Below are positions 27,524-35,167 of a DNA stretch of 64,000 nucleotides, piece after piece. The number at the start of each line of letters is the position of its first letter. Positions within the stretch are counted from its first letter, which is position 1. The translations under genes were made by a program, and so were the position numbers. The DNA comes from Minisyncoccota bacterium (GTDB lineage Bacteria; Patescibacteriota; Minisyncoccia; Phycocordibacterales; UBA9973): assembly GCA_036405895.1 (NCBI GenBank), contig DASWWS010000002.1, positions 20,903 to 84,902 on the forward strand, given 5' to 3'. The notes beneath the pieces are model-generated. The model made no database searches. It saw only the letters and a list, made by a program, of their open reading frames with translations, and was not told the DNA's origin.

Positions 27524-27760
27524 ATTCAGTTGTATTAAGTGAACGATTGCTTCTTGGCGGTATAATGCCGATATCTATCCCCGAAGTCAATAAAAATAGT
27601 CGTACCACCACTTGGGTGATACGACCGGTTTTCTCTCGCCTGTCGGCAAGAAAAATGGGCAGATTAGCTTTTTTCTGATGCGAGCTGTCTCATAGCGTAT
27701 TTCCCTCAGTGTACTCCTCTGTCACTAAAGTGCAAATAAAAAAAATAAACTAGATATGTC

Positions 27761-28282
27761 TTACATTGACGGCAGACCAAGACGATTTAATGTAATTCCT
27801 TCAAATTCATAATCGCACTCAACTTCTTTAATATAAGCGAGTACGTCTTTATATGCGGGAGCTTGGAACCATTCACTTAGGATATAAATATATTCAACTT
27901 GAACACCGAGTGCATTTAAAAGTTTTTCATACTGTCGTTTCTTAAAATGACAAGTTTGTAATTTCTCATCTACTGATCCAGCAACATTCTGGAACTTAAT
28001 TTCAATCACAAAAAATGTATTTGTATTTAATACTAAAATAGCATCATCAGGAAGAAGTTTTTTGGAGAGAATTTCCCTATGATTTATACCTTTTCTTTCA
28101 AGAAATTTATATAAGGTGTTTTTTCGAAGATTAAGAGCAACTACTTCTCCATTAAATAAAATAGAGCCATCATCCTTAACCTCATAACCCGGCATCGTCT
28201 TAAGAACAGTAAGAAAATCAACCCTACCTTCAAAATGCATTCCAGATTTTGTATTTCCGCCCCCAACACCACCAAGCTTCAT
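27761..28282 (-). CDS. short PD-(D/E)xK nuclease, likely N-terminally truncated DpnII/MboI-family (GATC) restriction endonuclease
   Basis: 173 aa; LPDDAILVLNTNTFFVIEIKFQNVAGSVDEKL resembles DpnII catalytic block FDFVIKNEQGELYLIEVNFYSGSGSKLNE (recalled from memory); N-terminus GGVGGGNTKSG resembles DpnII mid-region DTNGRKNRTG; full-length family members are about 280-290 aa. Confidence 0.5.
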   Translation of the reverse strand: MKLGGVGGGNTKSGMHFEGRVDFLTVLKTMPGYEVKDDGSILFNGEVVALNLRKNTLYKFLERKGINHREILSKKLLPDDAILVLNTNTFFVIEIKFQNVAGSVDEKLQTCHFKKRQYEKLLNALGVQVEYIYILSEWFQAPAYKDVLAYIKEVECDYEFEGITLNRLGLPSM

Positions 28283-28361
28283 ATCGATCAGATTACCATT
28301 TAAGGCTTCTCTGTCAATAAATTCACTTACCTAGGAATCTAAGGGTGCAACTGATAAAATC

Positions 28362-29210
28362 ATGTTTATGAAAGTGACGAGAAAAGTAAAGCCATTTCTT
28401 AAATGGGTTGGGGGCAAGGGCCAATTACTGGAGCAATTCGAAAATATTTATCCAAAGAAATTCAATACATATTACGAACCTTTTATTGGTGGGGGTGCTG
28501 TTTTCTTTTCTATTAACCCTAAGAAGGGTGTTATTAATGACATTAATCAAACTCTAGTTAATACATACAAGAATATTAAAAATCAGCCCGAAAAGTTAAT
28601 CAGGTCCCTTAAAAAAATTGAGAAAGATTTTATAGCTAAAAATGAGGATGATCGTAAGGAGTATTATTATTTAATTCGAGATAAATATAATCGGCTTTCT
28701 TCTGAAGATTTCAACCGTAGCGTCTACTTTCTATTTTTAAATAAGACAGCCTTTAATGGTGTGTACCGAGAAAATTCAAAAGGAGGTTTTAACGTGCCGA
28801 TAGGCAGCTATAAAAATCCTAAAATTGTTGATGAAGAAAATATATTAGCAATCTCAAACACATTAAAGAATACGAAAATTACGTGCTCCTCTTTTGTTGA
28901 TGCGGTAAAAAATGCAAAGTCAGGAGATTTTGTATATTTTGATCCCCCCTATTACCCCTTATCTAAAACTTCGCAATTCACTAGCTATAGTAAAGATTCA
29001 TTTTCAGAAGAAGATCAAATTAAACTTCGCGATCTATTTGTTCAGTTAGATAAAAAAGGTGTTTACGTGATGCTCAGTAATTCAAGCGCCTCTTTTATAA
29101 AGAAAATCTATGCTGGATATACCCAAATCCCTGTATATGCTAATCGCATGATTAATTCAAAGTCAGATAGGCGAGGAAAGATATCAGAAGTAGTTATTAT
29201 TAATTATTAA
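28362..29210 (+). CDS. Dam-family (alpha-class) N6-adenine DNA methyltransferase, probable GATC specificity (DpnM/M.MboIA-like)
   Basis: KPFLKWVGGKGQLL, EPFIGGGAVFF (motif I), NGVYRENSKGGFNVPIGSY, FVYFDPPYYPL (motif IV), FTSYSKDSF - near-diagnostic Dam signature. Confidence 0.9.
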   Translation: MFMKVTRKVKPFLKWVGGKGQLLEQFENIYPKKFNTYYEPFIGGGAVFFSINPKKGVINDINQTLVNTYKNIKNQPEKLIRSLKKIEKDFIAKNEDDRKEYYYLIRDKYNRLSSEDFNRSVYFLFLNKTAFNGVYRENSKGGFNVPIGSYKNPKIVDEENILAISNTLKNTKITCSSFVDAVKNAKSGDFVYFDPPYYPLSKTSQFTSYSKDSFSEEDQIKLRDLFVQLDKKGVYVMLSNSSASFIKKIYAGYTQIPVYANRMINSKSDRRGKISEVVIINY

Positions 29211-30021
29211 GTTTTATAAGATCTTCAAAACGTTTTCGAGAAAGTTCTAGATATTTTTTCTCCATATCAATACCAATAAATTTCCTTCCATGTTTTTTTG
29301 CAGCAATCCCAGTTGTTGAGCTTCCTGTAAAAGGGTCAAGAACAACGTCCCCCTTATTTGTACTTGCTAATATAATCCTCTCTAAAAGAGATAATGGTTT
29401 TTGAGTTGGGTGTTTGGTAAATTTTTTTTCTTCTTTTTTAGGAGGATGAACTGCCCATACTGAACGCATTTGAAGATTAGGTTTTTTAATAAAATCTTCA
29501 GACCATTCGCCATTTTTCATCAAATCATAATTGAATATATGTTTTGCTTTTTTATCTTTGCGAGCCCATAAAATAGTTTCATGACTTGCAGTAAAAAACC
29601 TACAACTAAGATTAGGTGCTGCATTTGGTTTAAACCAAGATATGTCATTAAGCATATGAAATCCAATTGACTGGATAGCATGCCCACATTGATAAATAGA
29701 ATGATACGTACCACTAACCCAAATGGTGCCATGCGGCTTAAGAACACGATGGCATGCATTGAGCCATTTTTCGTGGAAGGCATAATCGCTGGCAAAACCC
29801 TTACTCTTATCCCATTCCCCCTTATTAACACTCACCATCTTTCCTGCATGGACTGTAAAACCATTATTTGAAAGCATATATGGAGGGTCAGCAAAAATCA
29901 TATCAATTGAATCTTCAGGGAGTGAATTCAAAAGTTCTACGCAGTCACTCAGGTAAAGAACGAAGTCTTTACCTGAGTAATGTGGCTTATTTTTAACATT
30001 TCTAAGTATTCTCTCAGGCAT
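29200..30021 (-). CDS. beta-class N6-adenine (or N4-cytosine) DNA methyltransferase, DpnA/M.MboIC-like second methylase
   Basis: IFADPPYM (motif IV) near N-terminus then VLDPFTGSSTTGIAA (motif I) near C-terminus = beta permutation; long collinear similarity to DpnA as recalled (KHPTQKP..LERIILAST). Confidence 0.85.
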   Translation of the reverse strand: MPERILRNVKNKPHYSGKDFVLYLSDCVELLNSLPEDSIDMIFADPPYMLSNNGFTVHAGKMVSVNKGEWDKSKGFASDYAFHEKWLNACHRVLKPHGTIWVSGTYHSIYQCGHAIQSIGFHMLNDISWFKPNAAPNLSCRFFTASHETILWARKDKKAKHIFNYDLMKNGEWSEDFIKKPNLQMRSVWAVHPPKKEEKKFTKHPTQKPLSLLERIILASTNKGDVVLDPFTGSSTTGIAAKKHGRKFIGIDMEKKYLELSRKRFEDLIKLNN

Positions 30022-30166
30022 TACGTATAGTTTAACTTATTAAAATGAACTTAACATAAAAAATTGTTAAATTATATATAAATTACCCATAAGATCCACA
30101 ATTTATACTAACCCGCACAGGACACAAAAGCCTCTTTAAGTAGAAGTTTTTGTTATAATAATAGAA

Positions 30167-31348
30167 GTGATTAGACTATTAAAAAACGATGACAAGCTTA
30201 TTTTAAGTTACTCTACAGATAATCCATGGTTTCGTGACCGACTACGAAATGGACAAGATATTTCTCTTAAAAAGAGAGCATTTATCCTATCAAAAAATGA
30301 TATTTCTAAACAAGATATTGATGATGATGGCGCTGATGTAGAATTTATTCTTGGAAATTTAATTGAGGGTCAATATTTTAAAATTGAAGGTAGAAAACTA
30401 GGGATTAATCAGGATGTGTACATAGACAAAAATGTAGAAATAACAGAAAGTTTCTTTCTTGGAGTAAGAGACATCCCCATATTTCAAAAAATTAGTAGGG
30501 TAGTAAATGAAGACATTTATATTGGAGGTAAACTAGAGGAGTCTATACCCCTGGAGGAATTTGAACAGTTACTTAAGAATTTTCCAAATTCCTATGAAAT
30601 TGCAAAATATCTGGACGCTCGTCTCGCTTCTGTATTAAGTAACTATTTCGATTCTTCATCAAATGTAGAAGCGAAATATCAGCGCTACATGAACAAAAAA
30701 CAAAGTATCAAAGGCGAGGATTTACCTGAACTTTTTAAAGAGAGAGAAATAGTCAAGTACGAAACAATTCTCGAAAAACTCGAACTGATGCTTTTAAATC
30801 AAAATAAATATAACGAAAAACAGTGGCAGAAAGAAATACTCGAAATAATTCTACTTTTGTATCCTAAATATATTTACGCATTTGAAGAAGCCCCTATTCG
30901 GGATCAGTATCAAAGTAAGGATAGAAAGATTGATTTCCTACTCATTGATGCTAACGGAAACACGGACATTATTGAAATCAAGCGACCATTAAACGAAAGG
31001 ATTATCACAAAAGGACGGTATCGTGATAATTACATACCACTAAGAGAGTTATCTGGAACAGTGATGCAGATTGAAAAGTATATATATCATCTTAATAAAT
31101 CTGGGCAGACTGGCGAGAATAGATTGACCACGAAGTATAAGAGTAAGCTACCTGCTGATTTCAAAATAAAGATTACCAATCCTGGTGGAATGATTATCAT
31201 GGGAAGAGACAATCTTCTTTCTCGTGATCAAATGGAAGATTTTGAAGTGGTAAAGAGAAAATACAAAAATGTAATTGATATCATTACCTATGACGATCTC
31301 ATAAGAAGACTGAAATCTATTATTACAGCTTGGAAAAATAGAGCTTAA
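30167..31348 (+). CDS. Shedu-like defense nuclease (DUF4263 PD-(D/E)xK domain at C-terminus), GTG start
   Basis: 393 aa; C-terminal block KIDFLLIDANGNTDIIEIKRP (D...ExK) followed by VMQIEKYIYHL (Q..Y) as in DUF4263/SduA; N-terminal about 230 aa unassigned. Confidence 0.6.
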   Translation: MIRLLKNDDKLILSYSTDNPWFRDRLRNGQDISLKKRAFILSKNDISKQDIDDDGADVEFILGNLIEGQYFKIEGRKLGINQDVYIDKNVEITESFFLGVRDIPIFQKISRVVNEDIYIGGKLEESIPLEEFEQLLKNFPNSYEIAKYLDARLASVLSNYFDSSSNVEAKYQRYMNKKQSIKGEDLPELFKEREIVKYETILEKLELMLLNQNKYNEKQWQKEILEIILLLYPKYIYAFEEAPIRDQYQSKDRKIDFLLIDANGNTDIIEIKRPLNERIITKGRYRDNYIPLRELSGTVMQIEKYIYHLNKSGQTGENRLTTKYKSKLPADFKIKITNPGGMIIMGRDNLLSRDQMEDFEVVKRKYKNVIDIITYDDLIRRLKSIITAWKNRA

Positions 31349-31353
31349 ACTTA

Positions 31354-33285
31354 CTACAGGACAATAATTTCCCACTGATTTTGATCTATATCACTAAGAT
31401 TAGCAGTATACCTATCATTATGGATAGCAACACAAAGAAGATGCGTTGGTCGAGATAATCCAACATACATCATTTTTGTAGACTCTTTATGGTAAATTCG
31501 AGCGTCGTTAAATACCGTACCCTTGAATTGTGGACTTAACCTTTGTGACTCGTATGCAATAGTTCTTTGTTGGTGGTAATTTGTTTCAAGATAAAGAGTT
31601 GCTGTATGTGTTTGACCCTTAACTGAGTGAATAGTTGCAACTTCAACTTTGATACCGTCGCCATTATAAATATTTGGAGACTCTTCCACCTCAGTATTAT
31701 AAATTGGTGTTCCAGCATGAGGAGTATCAATAAATGTCCTGCTTTCCGCTATCTCTTTGCCAAACAAGGCAAGTAGGCTGACTAAATAGGTCTTTATATC
31801 AGTAAGAACCTGATCCTTTTGTCCTTTGATAAGCCTAAAACTCCACTCAGCTAATTTTAGCTTAAAAGAATCGTATACCTCCTCATCTTGCTCACTTAGA
31901 AAGCTTAGAAACTTTTGTCGTGTATAAAATCTATCATTCTCGTCAACAATATTTTCCAAACGTAATATTCTTATAATAGCGTTAATTATATTTTTCTTAA
32001 AAGGCTCAAAAGTTTTTTCCCCAGCCTTTATATTAGAGAGATAGGCCTCAAGGCAGTCACAGTCTATTTTGGGTTGTCTTGCATCTTTAGAAAAAGTTGG
32101 GTGGTAATCACCGATTCTGGTTTTATTTGCTTCAACTTTAGTATTCCAACCGATAGCTCTATATTTATTTTTTGGAGAGTTAGTTATCTTCCCCTCATCT
32201 TGGAAAGCCTTAATCATTTCTGCAAATCTTGATATAACTTGAGAAATATTTGCATCCGTATAAACAATTATATGAGGTTTAATATCTATCTCAGATCCAT
32301 CACCATTCTTCATATGCCCAACAATGGCTATATTTTGTAGACCAAAAGGTACAACAACCTGTGCGATCTTAGGATTAAGGCGGTGGCTACCATTCAACTC
32401 TAAGACGGTAGGTCTATCAACCCATTGAGTATTCGCTTTAGCGGAATCGCTAAAAATTGATTGATTCTTGTCTCCGATTCGTTGATAGACTGACTCACTA
32501 GCACCTTCGCTGTAAAAAAGTTTTTCTAGGATATCATATTGAAGAGAGTCCATATCTTGAACCTCATCAACAAACACAAAGCGGAATCTTTTCTGCAAAA
32601 GAGTTTTAATTTGAGGATATTTATCAATCGCCTCAAATGCCAAAATAAATGCGTCCTCAAAACTGAGATAGCCTTTTTCTCTGAGTTGCTTTTTAAGAGC
32701 CAGGATTGCAACAGCTGTAGCATTGGTAGTATCTGCAAAAGTAGGAACGGGTGGATATCCGCTTGCGAGCAAGTCATTTGGATGTAGCTTGATATTAAAC
32801 AGCTTAGACTCATCACTTGTTCCAAATTGATGACCTAGCCATGCCCTTGCGGGTCCAGGCACATATTGTGACTGATAATAAGATTGATCGTCGATACGAA
32901 AAACTTTCTTTCCATATTTATTCACATAAAAAGGCGTTGCGATAAATTTATCAACAAATATCTGGATTGTTCCAACAAAGTTTGGGTAACTGAACAAATG
33001 TGAACAATATTTGCCAATCTTGTCTTTGATTTCGTCAATCGCAGCGTTCGTATGAGAAATGACTAAAATACCTGAGCCATCAGCAAAAGGTAGGTATCTA
33101 TCAAGTATTAAAAGCTTTGCTAGGAGTGCCGTTGTCTTTCCACTACCAGGAACAGCTTGTAGATCTAGAATCTCAAGATTGGTGATAAAATCACGTCGCT
33201 CCTGATCAAAATGTTGTCCATCTGGAAGCAGTATTGATTCAGCATAAGCAATATCATCTTCCGTAACATTAAGAGTTTGAGGCAT
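31354..33285 (-). CDS. gajB: Gabija GajB-like UvrD/PcrA-type superfamily-1 helicase
   Basis: 643 aa; Walker A AVPGSGKTTALLAK, motif II FVFVDEVQD; overlaps gajA-like gene by 17 nt. Confidence 0.75.
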   Translation of the reverse strand: MPQTLNVTEDDIAYAESILLPDGQHFDQERRDFITNLEILDLQAVPGSGKTTALLAKLLILDRYLPFADGSGILVISHTNAAIDEIKDKIGKYCSHLFSYPNFVGTIQIFVDKFIATPFYVNKYGKKVFRIDDQSYYQSQYVPGPARAWLGHQFGTSDESKLFNIKLHPNDLLASGYPPVPTFADTTNATAVAILALKKQLREKGYLSFEDAFILAFEAIDKYPQIKTLLQKRFRFVFVDEVQDMDSLQYDILEKLFYSEGASESVYQRIGDKNQSIFSDSAKANTQWVDRPTVLELNGSHRLNPKIAQVVVPFGLQNIAIVGHMKNGDGSEIDIKPHIIVYTDANISQVISRFAEMIKAFQDEGKITNSPKNKYRAIGWNTKVEANKTRIGDYHPTFSKDARQPKIDCDCLEAYLSNIKAGEKTFEPFKKNIINAIIRILRLENIVDENDRFYTRQKFLSFLSEQDEEVYDSFKLKLAEWSFRLIKGQKDQVLTDIKTYLVSLLALFGKEIAESRTFIDTPHAGTPIYNTEVEESPNIYNGDGIKVEVATIHSVKGQTHTATLYLETNYHQQRTIAYESQRLSPQFKGTVFNDARIYHKESTKMMYVGLSRPTHLLCVAIHNDRYTANLSDIDQNQWEIIVL

Positions 33286-35098
33286 AACGTATTGCTTTTA
33301 TTAAGTAGCTTATAGTGTCAGCTTCATCGTCCTTATTAATAGTGACTAACGATGTAGTGTTTTGAAAATTCTTATCTAAAAGATTAGCAAGCTTATAGGC
33401 GATTTCTGTTTTCTTTAAGCCTTTATTGATCAACTTTTCGGCTAGTGATTTTTCAAAATCATCAGTCCAATTTGTTCCTGTATGAATAGCCTCAACAACC
33501 ATTTTAAAACTATCAGATAGACAACTCGAGTTTAGAAGTGAGTATTCTAAGGTCCACTGTGGAGCAACAAAGAATTTTACATTCTCTTCTGATCTAGCCT
33601 CTATAGTAGGAATTTTAGCTATTGTTTCTGCCTCTACCGTAGCTGTATCAATCTTTGCAAACTCATATTGATTTTTCCCCGCTACCTTAACTGGCTTACC
33701 ATCGCCGTCTAACACCAAATCTTTCTGGTATCTTGGCACGTCTACATCAGTCACAACAGCAACAGGGATATTCATCGGACTACCACTTTGTCTCAAAAAG
33801 ATATTCGTATAATTTGAAAATCCTAGATTCCCAATATTAATAACGGTGACACCTTTTTCTGTTAAATCGATACCCATCTTTTTTGCAATACTCGGTATCA
33901 AAATCTCTTCTGCCCACCCCTCTACCAAAATGACACCTTTGGCAAAAAATAAATTTGCTTTTGTTGTATCAAGAAACTTTTCTAAAAAAACGTATTCTTT
34001 TTGATCGAGCTTTGTATATTCTGAACCCATTGGAAAAGCAGCGCCGTCTTTGCAAACTATTAGATGTTTAAGTTTTACCTTAGAAGCGAGATTGGGGCTG
34101 TGAGTAGTCAGTATAAGCTGAATATCCTTTTGAGCCTGAAGTACCTCTATAACCTGCATTTGAGCCTGAGGATGCAAATGTGCCTCTAACTCTTCAATTA
34201 AGCCAAGTCGTAAGCCATTCCAATTTGGTTTATTCAGGTGAAGTAACTCTGACGACATAAACAACTTGTTCAATGTTCCTAAGCCTGGGTTAATTACGCC
34301 CTTGAGCGAAAGCTCCAGTCTTTCAAGAATATTTTTCAGTTTTCCGTCATTAACTGTAAAAACAGATTCACGATCTGGGTGATAAAAAGACTGAATGTAC
34401 TTATCTATTTCATTTTTCAAATCCTGTCCTTTTAGATCACCAATAGCGACATCATCAGTGTCTTTTCCTTCAAAATATTTTTCAATCGAAGTATTAAAGT
34501 GTTTGAATATTTCAATTAGAAGGTGGTCATCTTTCTTGCCTTTAAAAGCATCATGTCCCTGAAGAATCTGGGACAATCGAGAGTTCTTTTTTGGAACCAA
34601 TTCTGATTCAGCATCTCGCAATGGTCGTAGATAAGTACTCTTCAAATAATCTCTGGCTTCTGCGTTTAGGGTAACCCCTTCTGTATCTACACCAGCTTTT
34701 ATGTCATAAGGAAATACCTGCTCTGATCCAGCACTTCTTTTTACATCCAATATTAATCTAAGAAAGCATTGTGCATCTTCTCCTTCACCGGTCCAACCGA
34801 GCCAATCAATAAAGTTCTTTGCTTCCTGAAGATTTAAATCAATGAACATTAGCTCAATCCTAAAACGAGAACTATTACCGAAGAAGTCATCTTGTTCTGC
34901 TCGAATCCAGTCAAAACTGTGAGTCTTAAGTGTAAGTTTTATAGCGTCTATAATTGCTGATTTTCCTGAATCATTCTCACCGATAAGAACATTCAATCCC
35001 TTGGTGAGGTTAAGGTCTAAATCTGGAGAATCAAGATTGAAATCAGTTGGTTTTCCATATTTTCTAAAATTCCATAACTTGATATTTGCTAGATACAT
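33269..35098 (-). CDS. gajA: Gabija GajA-like OLD-family nuclease (ABC ATPase + TOPRIM)
   Basis: 609 aa; Walker A LIGENDSGKS, ABC signature/D-loop IEELEAHLHP, H-loop LILTTHSP, TOPRIM glutamate VILVEGWAEE and DxD VVTDVDV. Confidence 0.8.
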   Translation of the reverse strand: MYLANIKLWNFRKYGKPTDFNLDSPDLDLNLTKGLNVLIGENDSGKSAIIDAIKLTLKTHSFDWIRAEQDDFFGNSSRFRIELMFIDLNLQEAKNFIDWLGWTGEGEDAQCFLRLILDVKRSAGSEQVFPYDIKAGVDTEGVTLNAEARDYLKSTYLRPLRDAESELVPKKNSRLSQILQGHDAFKGKKDDHLLIEIFKHFNTSIEKYFEGKDTDDVAIGDLKGQDLKNEIDKYIQSFYHPDRESVFTVNDGKLKNILERLELSLKGVINPGLGTLNKLFMSSELLHLNKPNWNGLRLGLIEELEAHLHPQAQMQVIEVLQAQKDIQLILTTHSPNLASKVKLKHLIVCKDGAAFPMGSEYTKLDQKEYVFLEKFLDTTKANLFFAKGVILVEGWAEEILIPSIAKKMGIDLTEKGVTVINIGNLGFSNYTNIFLRQSGSPMNIPVAVVTDVDVPRYQKDLVLDGDGKPVKVAGKNQYEFAKIDTATVEAETIAKIPTIEARSEENVKFFVAPQWTLEYSLLNSSCLSDSFKMVVEAIHTGTNWTDDFEKSLAEKLINKGLKKTEIAYKLANLLDKNFQNTTSLVTINKDDEADTISYLIKAIRYASNS

Positions 35099-35167
35099 GA
35101 TGGGCTGATTCTAGCATTTTCAGAGATGTTTTTGAAATAAAAAATGTCTTAAAATAAATTTCATGTC

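Follow-up and report, generated by a model that had tools for sequence, protein, structure and literature searches.

Is the small protein encoded beside two adenine methylases in a Minisyncoccota genome the remnant of a restriction endonuclease, or a working enzyme of unconventional size? The question is raised by a three-gene locus in a 64,000-nucleotide stretch of contig DASWWS010000002.1 (hereafter, the window). The locus comprises a candidate restriction endonuclease of 173 amino acids (27761..28282, minus strand; delimited from the list of open reading frames, or ORFs), the 282-residue methyltransferase M1 (28362..29210, plus strand), and the 273-residue methyltransferase M2 (29200..30021, minus strand). 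We refer to the 173-residue protein, and to its family, as R173. The genes lie along the window in the order R173(−) M1(+) M2(−), on alternating strands; R173 and M1 diverge from a 79-nt spacer (28283..28361), presumed to hold both promoters, and M1 and M2 converge, with an 11-nt overlap of their 3′ ends. These coordinates, the gene order and the 79-nt gap had all been given by a first-pass annotation, and the ORF list confirms them. That annotation took the locus for a DpnII/MboI-type GATC restriction–modification (R-M) cassette whose endonuclease was either truncated and inactive or miniaturized. Our analysis leads to a different view of the nuclease: all three ORFs are genuine genes and not the product of chance, and they probably make up an intact Type II GATC R-M cassette with a compact, uncharacterised nuclease, whose cleavage activity and specificity we infer.

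The length of R173 proved to be normal for its family. Among 5.8 billion proteins, 3946 homologues were found at E ≤ 1e-3, and among 1.84 billion cluster representatives, which were searched exhaustively and without a profile, 757 (50% identity) reached the same threshold. The median length is 174 residues for the 120 closest homologues, 98% of which have 165–190 residues, and 176 residues for the 150 best representatives. Because the norm across the family is about 175 residues, the copy in the window is not truncated. Nor can its ORF be longer, since its frame is interrupted by a TAG 16 codons upstream of the ATG; the earlier remark that there is no room for an extension was correct. The identical protein (100%) occurs in a Candidatus Paceibacterota metagenome-assembled genome, where it is annotated “hypothetical protein,” and it is retained on 12 contigs from several samples. 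R173 is therefore full-length, and the family of small nucleases to which it belongs is large and uncharacterised.

The residues expected of a nuclease are also in place. In an alignment of 50 family members (56–100% identical to the window protein), four blocks are invariant: an N-terminal GGxGG...T..G...E, P78-D79, E94-x-K96, and GS.DEKLQT. All are present in the window copy, whose motifs take the form GGxGGxNTK(S/T)Gx(H)FE at the N-terminus and GSVDEKLQTC farther on. D79, E94 and K96 are the predicted catalytic residues of a PD...ExK active site, which is intact. The AlphaFold2 model of R173 is a confident one (predicted local distance difference test score, pLDDT, 86.8; predicted template-modelling score, pTM, 0.83) with an alpha/beta core, and comparing it to the PDB with Foldseek gave weak matches (E ~1e-2); the 50 listed are mostly PD-(D/E)XK nucleases, and they include the restriction enzymes BstEII and BspD6I (its small subunit) as well as XisH and the cap-snatching endonucleases of arenaviruses. 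When the PDB was searched by sequence and by profile, nothing meaningful came up. In Pfam, the window protein reached 19.7 bits against PF20472 (PDDEXK_11), which is under the gathering threshold of 23.7 and concerns only residues 86–108. All 50 aligned members matched this model at E ≤ 1 around the ExK strand (best, 5.5e-8), and some relatives exceed the threshold (e.g., P0212, at 27.1 bits). PDDEXK_11 is a generic PD-(D/E)XK nuclease domain family whose name carries no functional assignment. The PHROGs collection contains no R173 family.

Does R173 belong to the DpnII/MboI family, as the first-pass annotation supposed? Neither the window protein (at E ≤ 0.1) nor any of the 50 family members (at E ≤ 1) matched the DpnII model PF04556; R.LlaDCHI and two of its plasmid homologues, which served as positive controls, matched it at 3.6e-86, 4.7e-103, and 1.5e-79. 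A BLASTP comparison of R173 to R.LlaDCHI was not significant (E = 1.2). When profile hidden Markov models (HMMs) were run against sequences, the best score of the R173 HMM on a DpnII protein was 4.8 bits and that of the DpnII HMM on an R173 protein was 13.8 bits, with the alignments falling mostly in the catalytic block. Membership of R173 in the DpnII/MboI family was ruled out by these BLASTP, Pfam, and HMM-to-sequence searches. The proteins also differ in build: the DpnII-family members that we examined have 285–309 residues, with a helical N-terminal region of about 140 residues before the catalytic half, vs. 173 residues for R173.

A local likeness between the two families had been pointed out earlier, and it can indeed be seen in the alignments. 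The DpnII pattern “D-a-v...lIETNyyGGGGSKL” resembles “PD-a-i...iIE.KFQ.vaGSvDEKL” in R173, and the upstream block “N.RKNRSG..ME” resembles “NTK(S/T)G..FE.” Profile–profile alignment with hhalign (263 R173 sequences vs. 17 DpnII sequences) fell into the register of the catalytic block, pairing D79 with D210, E94 with E225, K96 with N227, and GS with GS over R173 residues 15–154 and R.LlaDCHI residues 120–285, i.e., the C-terminal half. Its P was 0.0053 and its score was 25.6; a reversed-template control scored 18.0, and the true alignment did no more than equal the best of 60 block-shuffled controls. R173 is set apart from the DpnII family because the BLASTP and PF04556 comparisons both fail to join them.

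In a search of predicted viral structures (BFVD), the best matches of the R173 model were G8DDE9, A0A7S6NXM7 (from Bathycoccus sp. RCC716 virus 1), and A0A6G6XN47, with E-values of 2e-8 to 2e-7. These viral proteins have about 180–215 residues and are 23–26% identical to R173; their structures are predicted. G8DDE9 was the top structure for R173 (2e-8) and also for a DpnII-family AlphaFold model (8e-4), a low-confidence model (pLDDT 60.9) that derives from a shallow alignment; the second-best viral match of R173 ranked sixth for the same model. The signals of a very distant kinship between R173 and the catalytic half of DpnII are weak ones only. R173 is a separate small nuclease family that fills the slot of dpnB or mboB; it was not produced by shortening in this genome. 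Of the earlier idea of a miniaturized DpnII variant, the part that stands is that the protein is small and probably functional; its assignment to the DpnII family does not, given the BLASTP value and the absence of PF04556 from all 50 members. The first-pass annotation had named a lack of significant similarity to DpnII-family enzymes as a result that would overturn it, and as far as family membership goes, this is essentially what we found. It had also named a full-length endonuclease elsewhere in the genome as such a result; we looked for a full-length DpnII-family ORF and found none in the 64-kb window.

The methylases fared more conventionally. As proposed earlier, M1 belongs to the Dam family of alpha-class (D12) N6-adenine methyltransferases: it scored 306.1 bits against TIGR00571 (the Dam family; cut-off, 114.85 bits), 229.6 bits (6.8e-68) against PF02086 (D12; cut-off, 22 bits), and 2e-103 against the MTase_II profile of PADLOC. 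Over 279 residues, its identity to M.LlaDCHIA from the Lactococcus plasmid pSRQ700 is 48%. Its motifs follow the alpha-class order, with EPFIGGGA (FxGxG) at about residue 40 and DPPY at about residue 194. M2 is a beta-class N6-adenine methyltransferase of the DpnA/M.LlaDCHIB type, also as proposed. It matched PF01555 (N6_N4; cut-off, 26.7 bits) at 213.9 bits (3.6e-63) and MTase_II at 6e-102, and its motifs follow the beta-class order, DPPY at about residue 44 preceding DPFTGSSTT at about residue 229. Its identity is 53% to M.LlaDCHIB, which is the second, DpnA-type methylase in the LlaDCHI GATC system, and about 55% to a neisserial “dpnIIB-like” methylase, whereas the alphaproteobacterial CcrM-type (GANTC) methylases are only about 40–45% identical to it. 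Against the CcrM model of NCBIfam, it scored 256 bits, far under the cut-off of 830. Its best plasmid matches are the second methylases of cassettes comprising Dam, a beta methylase and DpnII. These comparisons support the prediction that M1 and M2 are a GATC-specific pair. The reading of the locus as a two-methylase GATC system of the DpnII/MboI type is upheld: the characterised pair closest to M1 and M2 is M.LlaDCHIA/M.LlaDCHIB, and their motifs are intact.

If R173 is the nuclease of such a system, it should keep company with the methylases elsewhere. We therefore surveyed 28 independent bacterial contexts, in which neighbours were annotated with the window proteins as queries and with precomputed Pfam labels. 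In 28 of 28, the R173 homologue is adjoined by methylases of the Dam type, of the DpnA type or of both, often with overlapping genes, and no other nuclease (including DpnII) lies beside the homologue in any of them. Of all our evidence on function, this is the strongest. The linkage of nuclease and methylase that is orthodox for Type II systems is thus conserved across taxa. The arrangements vary. Both methylases occur in the layout of the window in nine Candidate Phyla Radiation (CPR) genomes (Paceibacterota, Zambryskibacteria, and Saccharibacteria); in the order Dam–R173–beta, which is that of MboI, in Lawsonibacter and Oscillospiraceae; and in the order Dam–beta–R173, which is that of DpnII, with overlapping genes, in Phycisphaerae, Neisseria, and Kingella. 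A beta methylase is the only partner in Campylobacter pinnipediorum, Verrucomicrobiia, and Elusimicrobiota, and Dam is the only one in Hymenobacter/Cytophagales, in Puia, and on a Leuconostoc plasmid. Because a methylase of either class can be the sole partner of R173, the functional link is likely to be the property that they share, GATC methylation. One cluster representative (P0148, 489 residues) appears to be a fusion, with a D12/Dam domain at residues 20–268 followed by an R173 domain at residues 318–486.

The Neisseriaceae offer an instructive case. We found an R173 homologue at the leuS-dam/drg locus of two N. gonorrhoeae chromosomes, where the order is leuS, drg (DpnI family, 1.5e-77), a frameshifted beta methylase and a C-terminally truncated R173 homologue. 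In one of these NgoAXI/drg loci (L024 3197–5456, NZ_CP119142.1 at about 9.1–11.4 kb), the homologue has 151 residues. In dam-positive commensal Neisseria (L058–L062), leuS is followed by dam, the beta methylase and the R173 homologue, three genes that are intact and overlapping; the homologue has 184 residues and is about 46% identical to the window protein. Kingella oralis (L063–L065) likewise has an intact three-gene operon of dam, beta methylase and nuclease. The beta methylase and R173 are decayed where Drg, which cuts methylated GATC, occupies the slot of dam; this is as expected of a GATC R-M module. The orthologous neisserial methylase pair, M1/M2.Nme15193ORF50P in REBASE (“dam” and “dpnIIb”), yields 99.7–100% N6-methyladenine (m6A) at GATC, as measured by SMRT (single-molecule, real-time) sequencing (PMC7973814). 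Published accounts of the locus treat Dam as an orphan that is followed by a disrupted methylase (PMC6789123, PMC4269198, PMC516771); in dealing with the methylases and Drg, they leave the third gene, the R173 homologue, unmentioned. Literature searches on neisserial GATC enzymes (NlaII, NmeCI, and others) brought up nothing relevant and linked no purified activity to the R173 family. Several Neisseria species yield MboI isoschizomers.

The host sequence was inspected for traces of GATC restriction. In 56.5 kb of host flanks (1–27700 and 35151–64000), GATC occurs 95 times vs. 158 expected from a maximal-order Markov model (observed/expected, 0.60). Among palindromic tetramers, only CTAG (0.43) is more depleted, and AATT (0.72) comes after GATC. 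The low-GC island that contains the cassette, described below, has 24 GATC sites. This depletion fits long exposure to GATC restriction, without being proof of it.

How might the system operate? In the explanation that we favour, M1 and M2 would methylate the host chromosome at GATC, giving G(m6A)TC. Pneumococcal DpnA acts on single-stranded DNA (PMC3812788), and by analogy M2 may also methylate incoming single-stranded DNA. R173 would cut unmethylated GATC in invading DNA by means of D79, E94, and K96, presumably working as a homodimer with Mg2+. Since R173 always coexists with GATC m6A methylases in the bacterial contexts, it could not be methyl-dependent. The nuclease activity of R173, its GATC specificity, its sensitivity to methylation and its dimerisation, like the single-stranded DNA activity of M2, are what we infer from these comparisons. 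The cassette itself would be a small mobile unit that has landed in a defence island.

Several observations weigh against this explanation. No activity has been demonstrated for any member of the R173 family in the literature or annotations that we found, and the only public names are “hypothetical protein” and “PD-(D/E)XK nuclease superfamily protein.” NCBIfam has no model that matches R173, and the match to the Type II nuclease profile of PADLOC is weak (E = 0.003). The predicted GATC specificity draws on methylase identities of about 50% and on genomic context; the GATC depletion is moderate, and other causes could explain it. Five distinct cassettes on viral or mobile-element contigs from IMG/VR hold an R173 homologue together with a full-length nuclease of the DpnII family; in these, the two nuclease genes lie beside Dam and/or beta methylases (L030/L031/L035/L036, L034, L038, L044, and L046). 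Such co-occurrence could signify either redundancy or a different role for R173. Lastly, no nearby Dam or beta methylase was detected for the phage copies on L040–42, L048, L049, L051, L052, and L056.

The double-nuclease cassettes are among the reasons to consider a rival view, in which R173 plays an accessory part in GATC-methylase cassettes and is no classical enzyme for double-strand restriction at GATC. It might nick hemimethylated GATC in the manner of MutH, or join the DpnA-type single-strand methylase in acting on DNA that is single-stranded or being replicated. The DpnII-family nuclease that accompanies R173 in those five cassettes is full-length and apparently intact, R173 is half the size of other GATC enzymes, and it is without a solved or characterised relative; moreover, dam-positive Neisseria carry R173 at the dam locus, yet the literature calls Dam orphan or regulatory there (PMC6789123). 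We nevertheless hold an accessory role to be unlikely. In the 28 bacterial contexts, R173 is the sole nuclease beside the methylases, which is the signature of classical R-M. No sequence match links it to the MutH or Sau3AI families, and the cassette is mobile, occurring in defence islands and on phage or prophage contigs. In SsuDAT1I, two isoschizomeric nucleases reside in one DpnII-type cassette; with this precedent, the co-occurrence of R173 and DpnII requires no new role. A related proposal, that R173 is a distinct minimal module that works with GATC methylation in some other way (for instance, by cutting hemimethylated, replicating or single-stranded GATC DNA together with the DpnA-type methylase), would explain both its presence beside full-length DpnII and its retention at the dam locus of the naturally transformable Neisseria and Kingella; we rate it as quite unlikely.

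The target could also be something other than GATC. R173 might cut a longer site that contains GATC, or GANTC, in partnership with one of the methylases, the other being an unrelated passenger. The resemblance of M2 to GANTC methylases of the CcrM/HinfI type (256 bits vs. the cut-off of 830 for the CcrM model) lends this some substance; identities of about 50% cannot fix a specificity with certainty. Yet R173 pairs with Dam alone in Bacteroidota and on the Leuconostoc plasmid, and with the beta methylase alone in Campylobacter, Verrucomicrobiia, and Elusimicrobiota; GATC is the only property known to be common to both methylase classes. In addition, M2 is nearer to M.LlaDCHIB than to the alphaproteobacterial CcrM-type enzymes, and the neisserial pair gives GATC methylation only (PMC7973814). 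We judge a different target to be distinctly improbable. Hardly credible, finally, is the first of the two options with which the locus came to us: that R173 is a dead DpnII/MboI enzyme, bereft of its N-terminus, and that the methylases are in effect orphans. Compared with DpnB or R.MboI, R173 is short by about 120 residues, and hhalign does place it on the C-terminal half of R.LlaDCHI. But its length is that of thousands of homologues, its catalytic residues are invariant in the 50-member alignment, and the identical protein has been kept on 12 contigs. None of the 50 members matches the DpnII Pfam model, which genuine DpnII enzymes match at 1e-80 to 1e-103, and the 79-nt spacer holds no remnant of an N-terminal domain. 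The family length (median, 174–176 residues) and the invariant catalytic residues refute the suggested truncation.

An intact Type II GATC cassette, then, is the explanation that we carry into a comparison with known systems. DpnII (dpnM-dpnA-dpnB, Streptococcus pneumoniae) and LlaDCHI likewise consist of an alpha and a beta methylase and one nuclease gene in a compact, mobile cassette, and the dpnM-dpnA-dpnB order with overlapping genes is kept by the R173 cassettes of Neisseria, Kingella, and Phycisphaerae. The window differs from this order, as had been noted, in that its genes are on alternating strands and do not form one operon. The nucleases differ too: those of DpnII and LlaDCHI belong to PF04556 (285–309 residues), and R173, at 173 residues, is without their N-terminal helical half. 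R.MboI is a DpnII-family enzyme of roughly 280 residues. The MboI system (mboA-mboB-mboC) has the methylase–nuclease–methylase order that we saw for R173 in Lawsonibacter and Oscillospiraceae, and the same target, GATC, is predicted; its gene order differs from that of the window. At the neisserial dam/drg locus (NgoAXI), dam-positive Neisseria hold the same three-gene content as the window; in N. gonorrhoeae, unlike in the window, the beta methylase and the R173 homologue have decayed. Sau3AI/MutH and R.CviAI of chlorovirus PBCV-1 share with R173 the predicted GATC target and the PD-(D/E)XK fold. For MutH and Sau3AI, R173 had no Pfam match (E ≤ 0.1), and neither appeared among the PDB sequence matches or the 50 listed structural matches. 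In the viral structure search, chlorovirus-like entries (M1H...) matched R173 weakly, with no identifiable CviAI on top. Recognition of GATC has been argued to have arisen several times on the PD-(D/E)XK scaffold (Orlowski and Bujnicki 2008, PMC2441816). Most likely, the locus combines a familiar architecture and familiar methylases with an unrelated or extremely diverged compact nuclease in the R slot.

What would follow if this is true? Were R173 active on GATC, it would be a fourth, very compact PD-(D/E)XK solution after DpnII/MboI, Sau3AI, and CviAI. Studies of minimal sequence recognition would profit from such an enzyme, which might also serve as a reagent. In Neisseria and Kingella, as in many uncultivated bacteria, dam would head a restriction cassette and not be an orphan regulator. 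Thousands of “hypothetical proteins” beside Dam- or DpnA-type methylases could be labelled candidate restriction enzymes, and methylases that are now counted as orphans would be reclassified. For the window itself, the outcome is fairly ordinary: a patescibacterium carries an intact R-M cassette within a defence island.

That island (27700..35150, defined by GC content and PADLOC) is 7.4 kb long, with a GC fraction of 0.31–0.38 vs. about 0.50 in the flanks, and the R-M cassette stands at its start. The remainder encodes a complete Shedu system, sduA (30167–31348, plus strand; PADLOC SduA, 1.5e-144), and a complete Gabija system made up of gajB (31354–33285, minus strand; GajB, 1.3e-233) and gajA (33269–35098, minus strand; GajA, 8e-223), which overlap by 17 nt. 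Because Shedu and Gabija share the low-GC block with the cassette, we regard the block as a defence island. This Candidatus Paceibacterota (CPR) genome thereby has three defence systems packed into 7.4 kb, inserted beside groES/groEL. The island recurs on several contigs of the organism, where it sits between groEL and an ORF of 136 residues. A search of its ends for flanking direct repeats, an integrase or a tRNA found none. In the divergent spacer between R173 and M1, a scan with the sigma-70 consensus gave no promoter match, although this consensus may not suit a patescibacterial host. The spacer does contain a GATC (28286–28289), located 4 nt upstream of the R173 start codon; it is speculation that this site could render expression sensitive to methylation.

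The phage copies of R173 that were found apart from methylases present a varied picture. Those on L040–42 are full-length (173 residues). On L048 (3929–4345), a 138-residue variant lies between a deoxycytidylate (dCMP) deaminase and a weakly ThyX-like ORF, with genes for serine hydroxymethyltransferase and dUTPase nearby. Short copies similar to that of L048 are found in L049, L051, and L052, which are large phage contigs from IMG/VR. Such short copies may serve to degrade host DNA in phages whose own DNA is modified. Phages in general may turn such a nuclease on host DNA. On L056 (371–3658), a 168-residue member has a GmrSD-N-domain protein on one side and an ATP-dependent DNA ligase on the other, a setting unlike all of the bacterial contexts.

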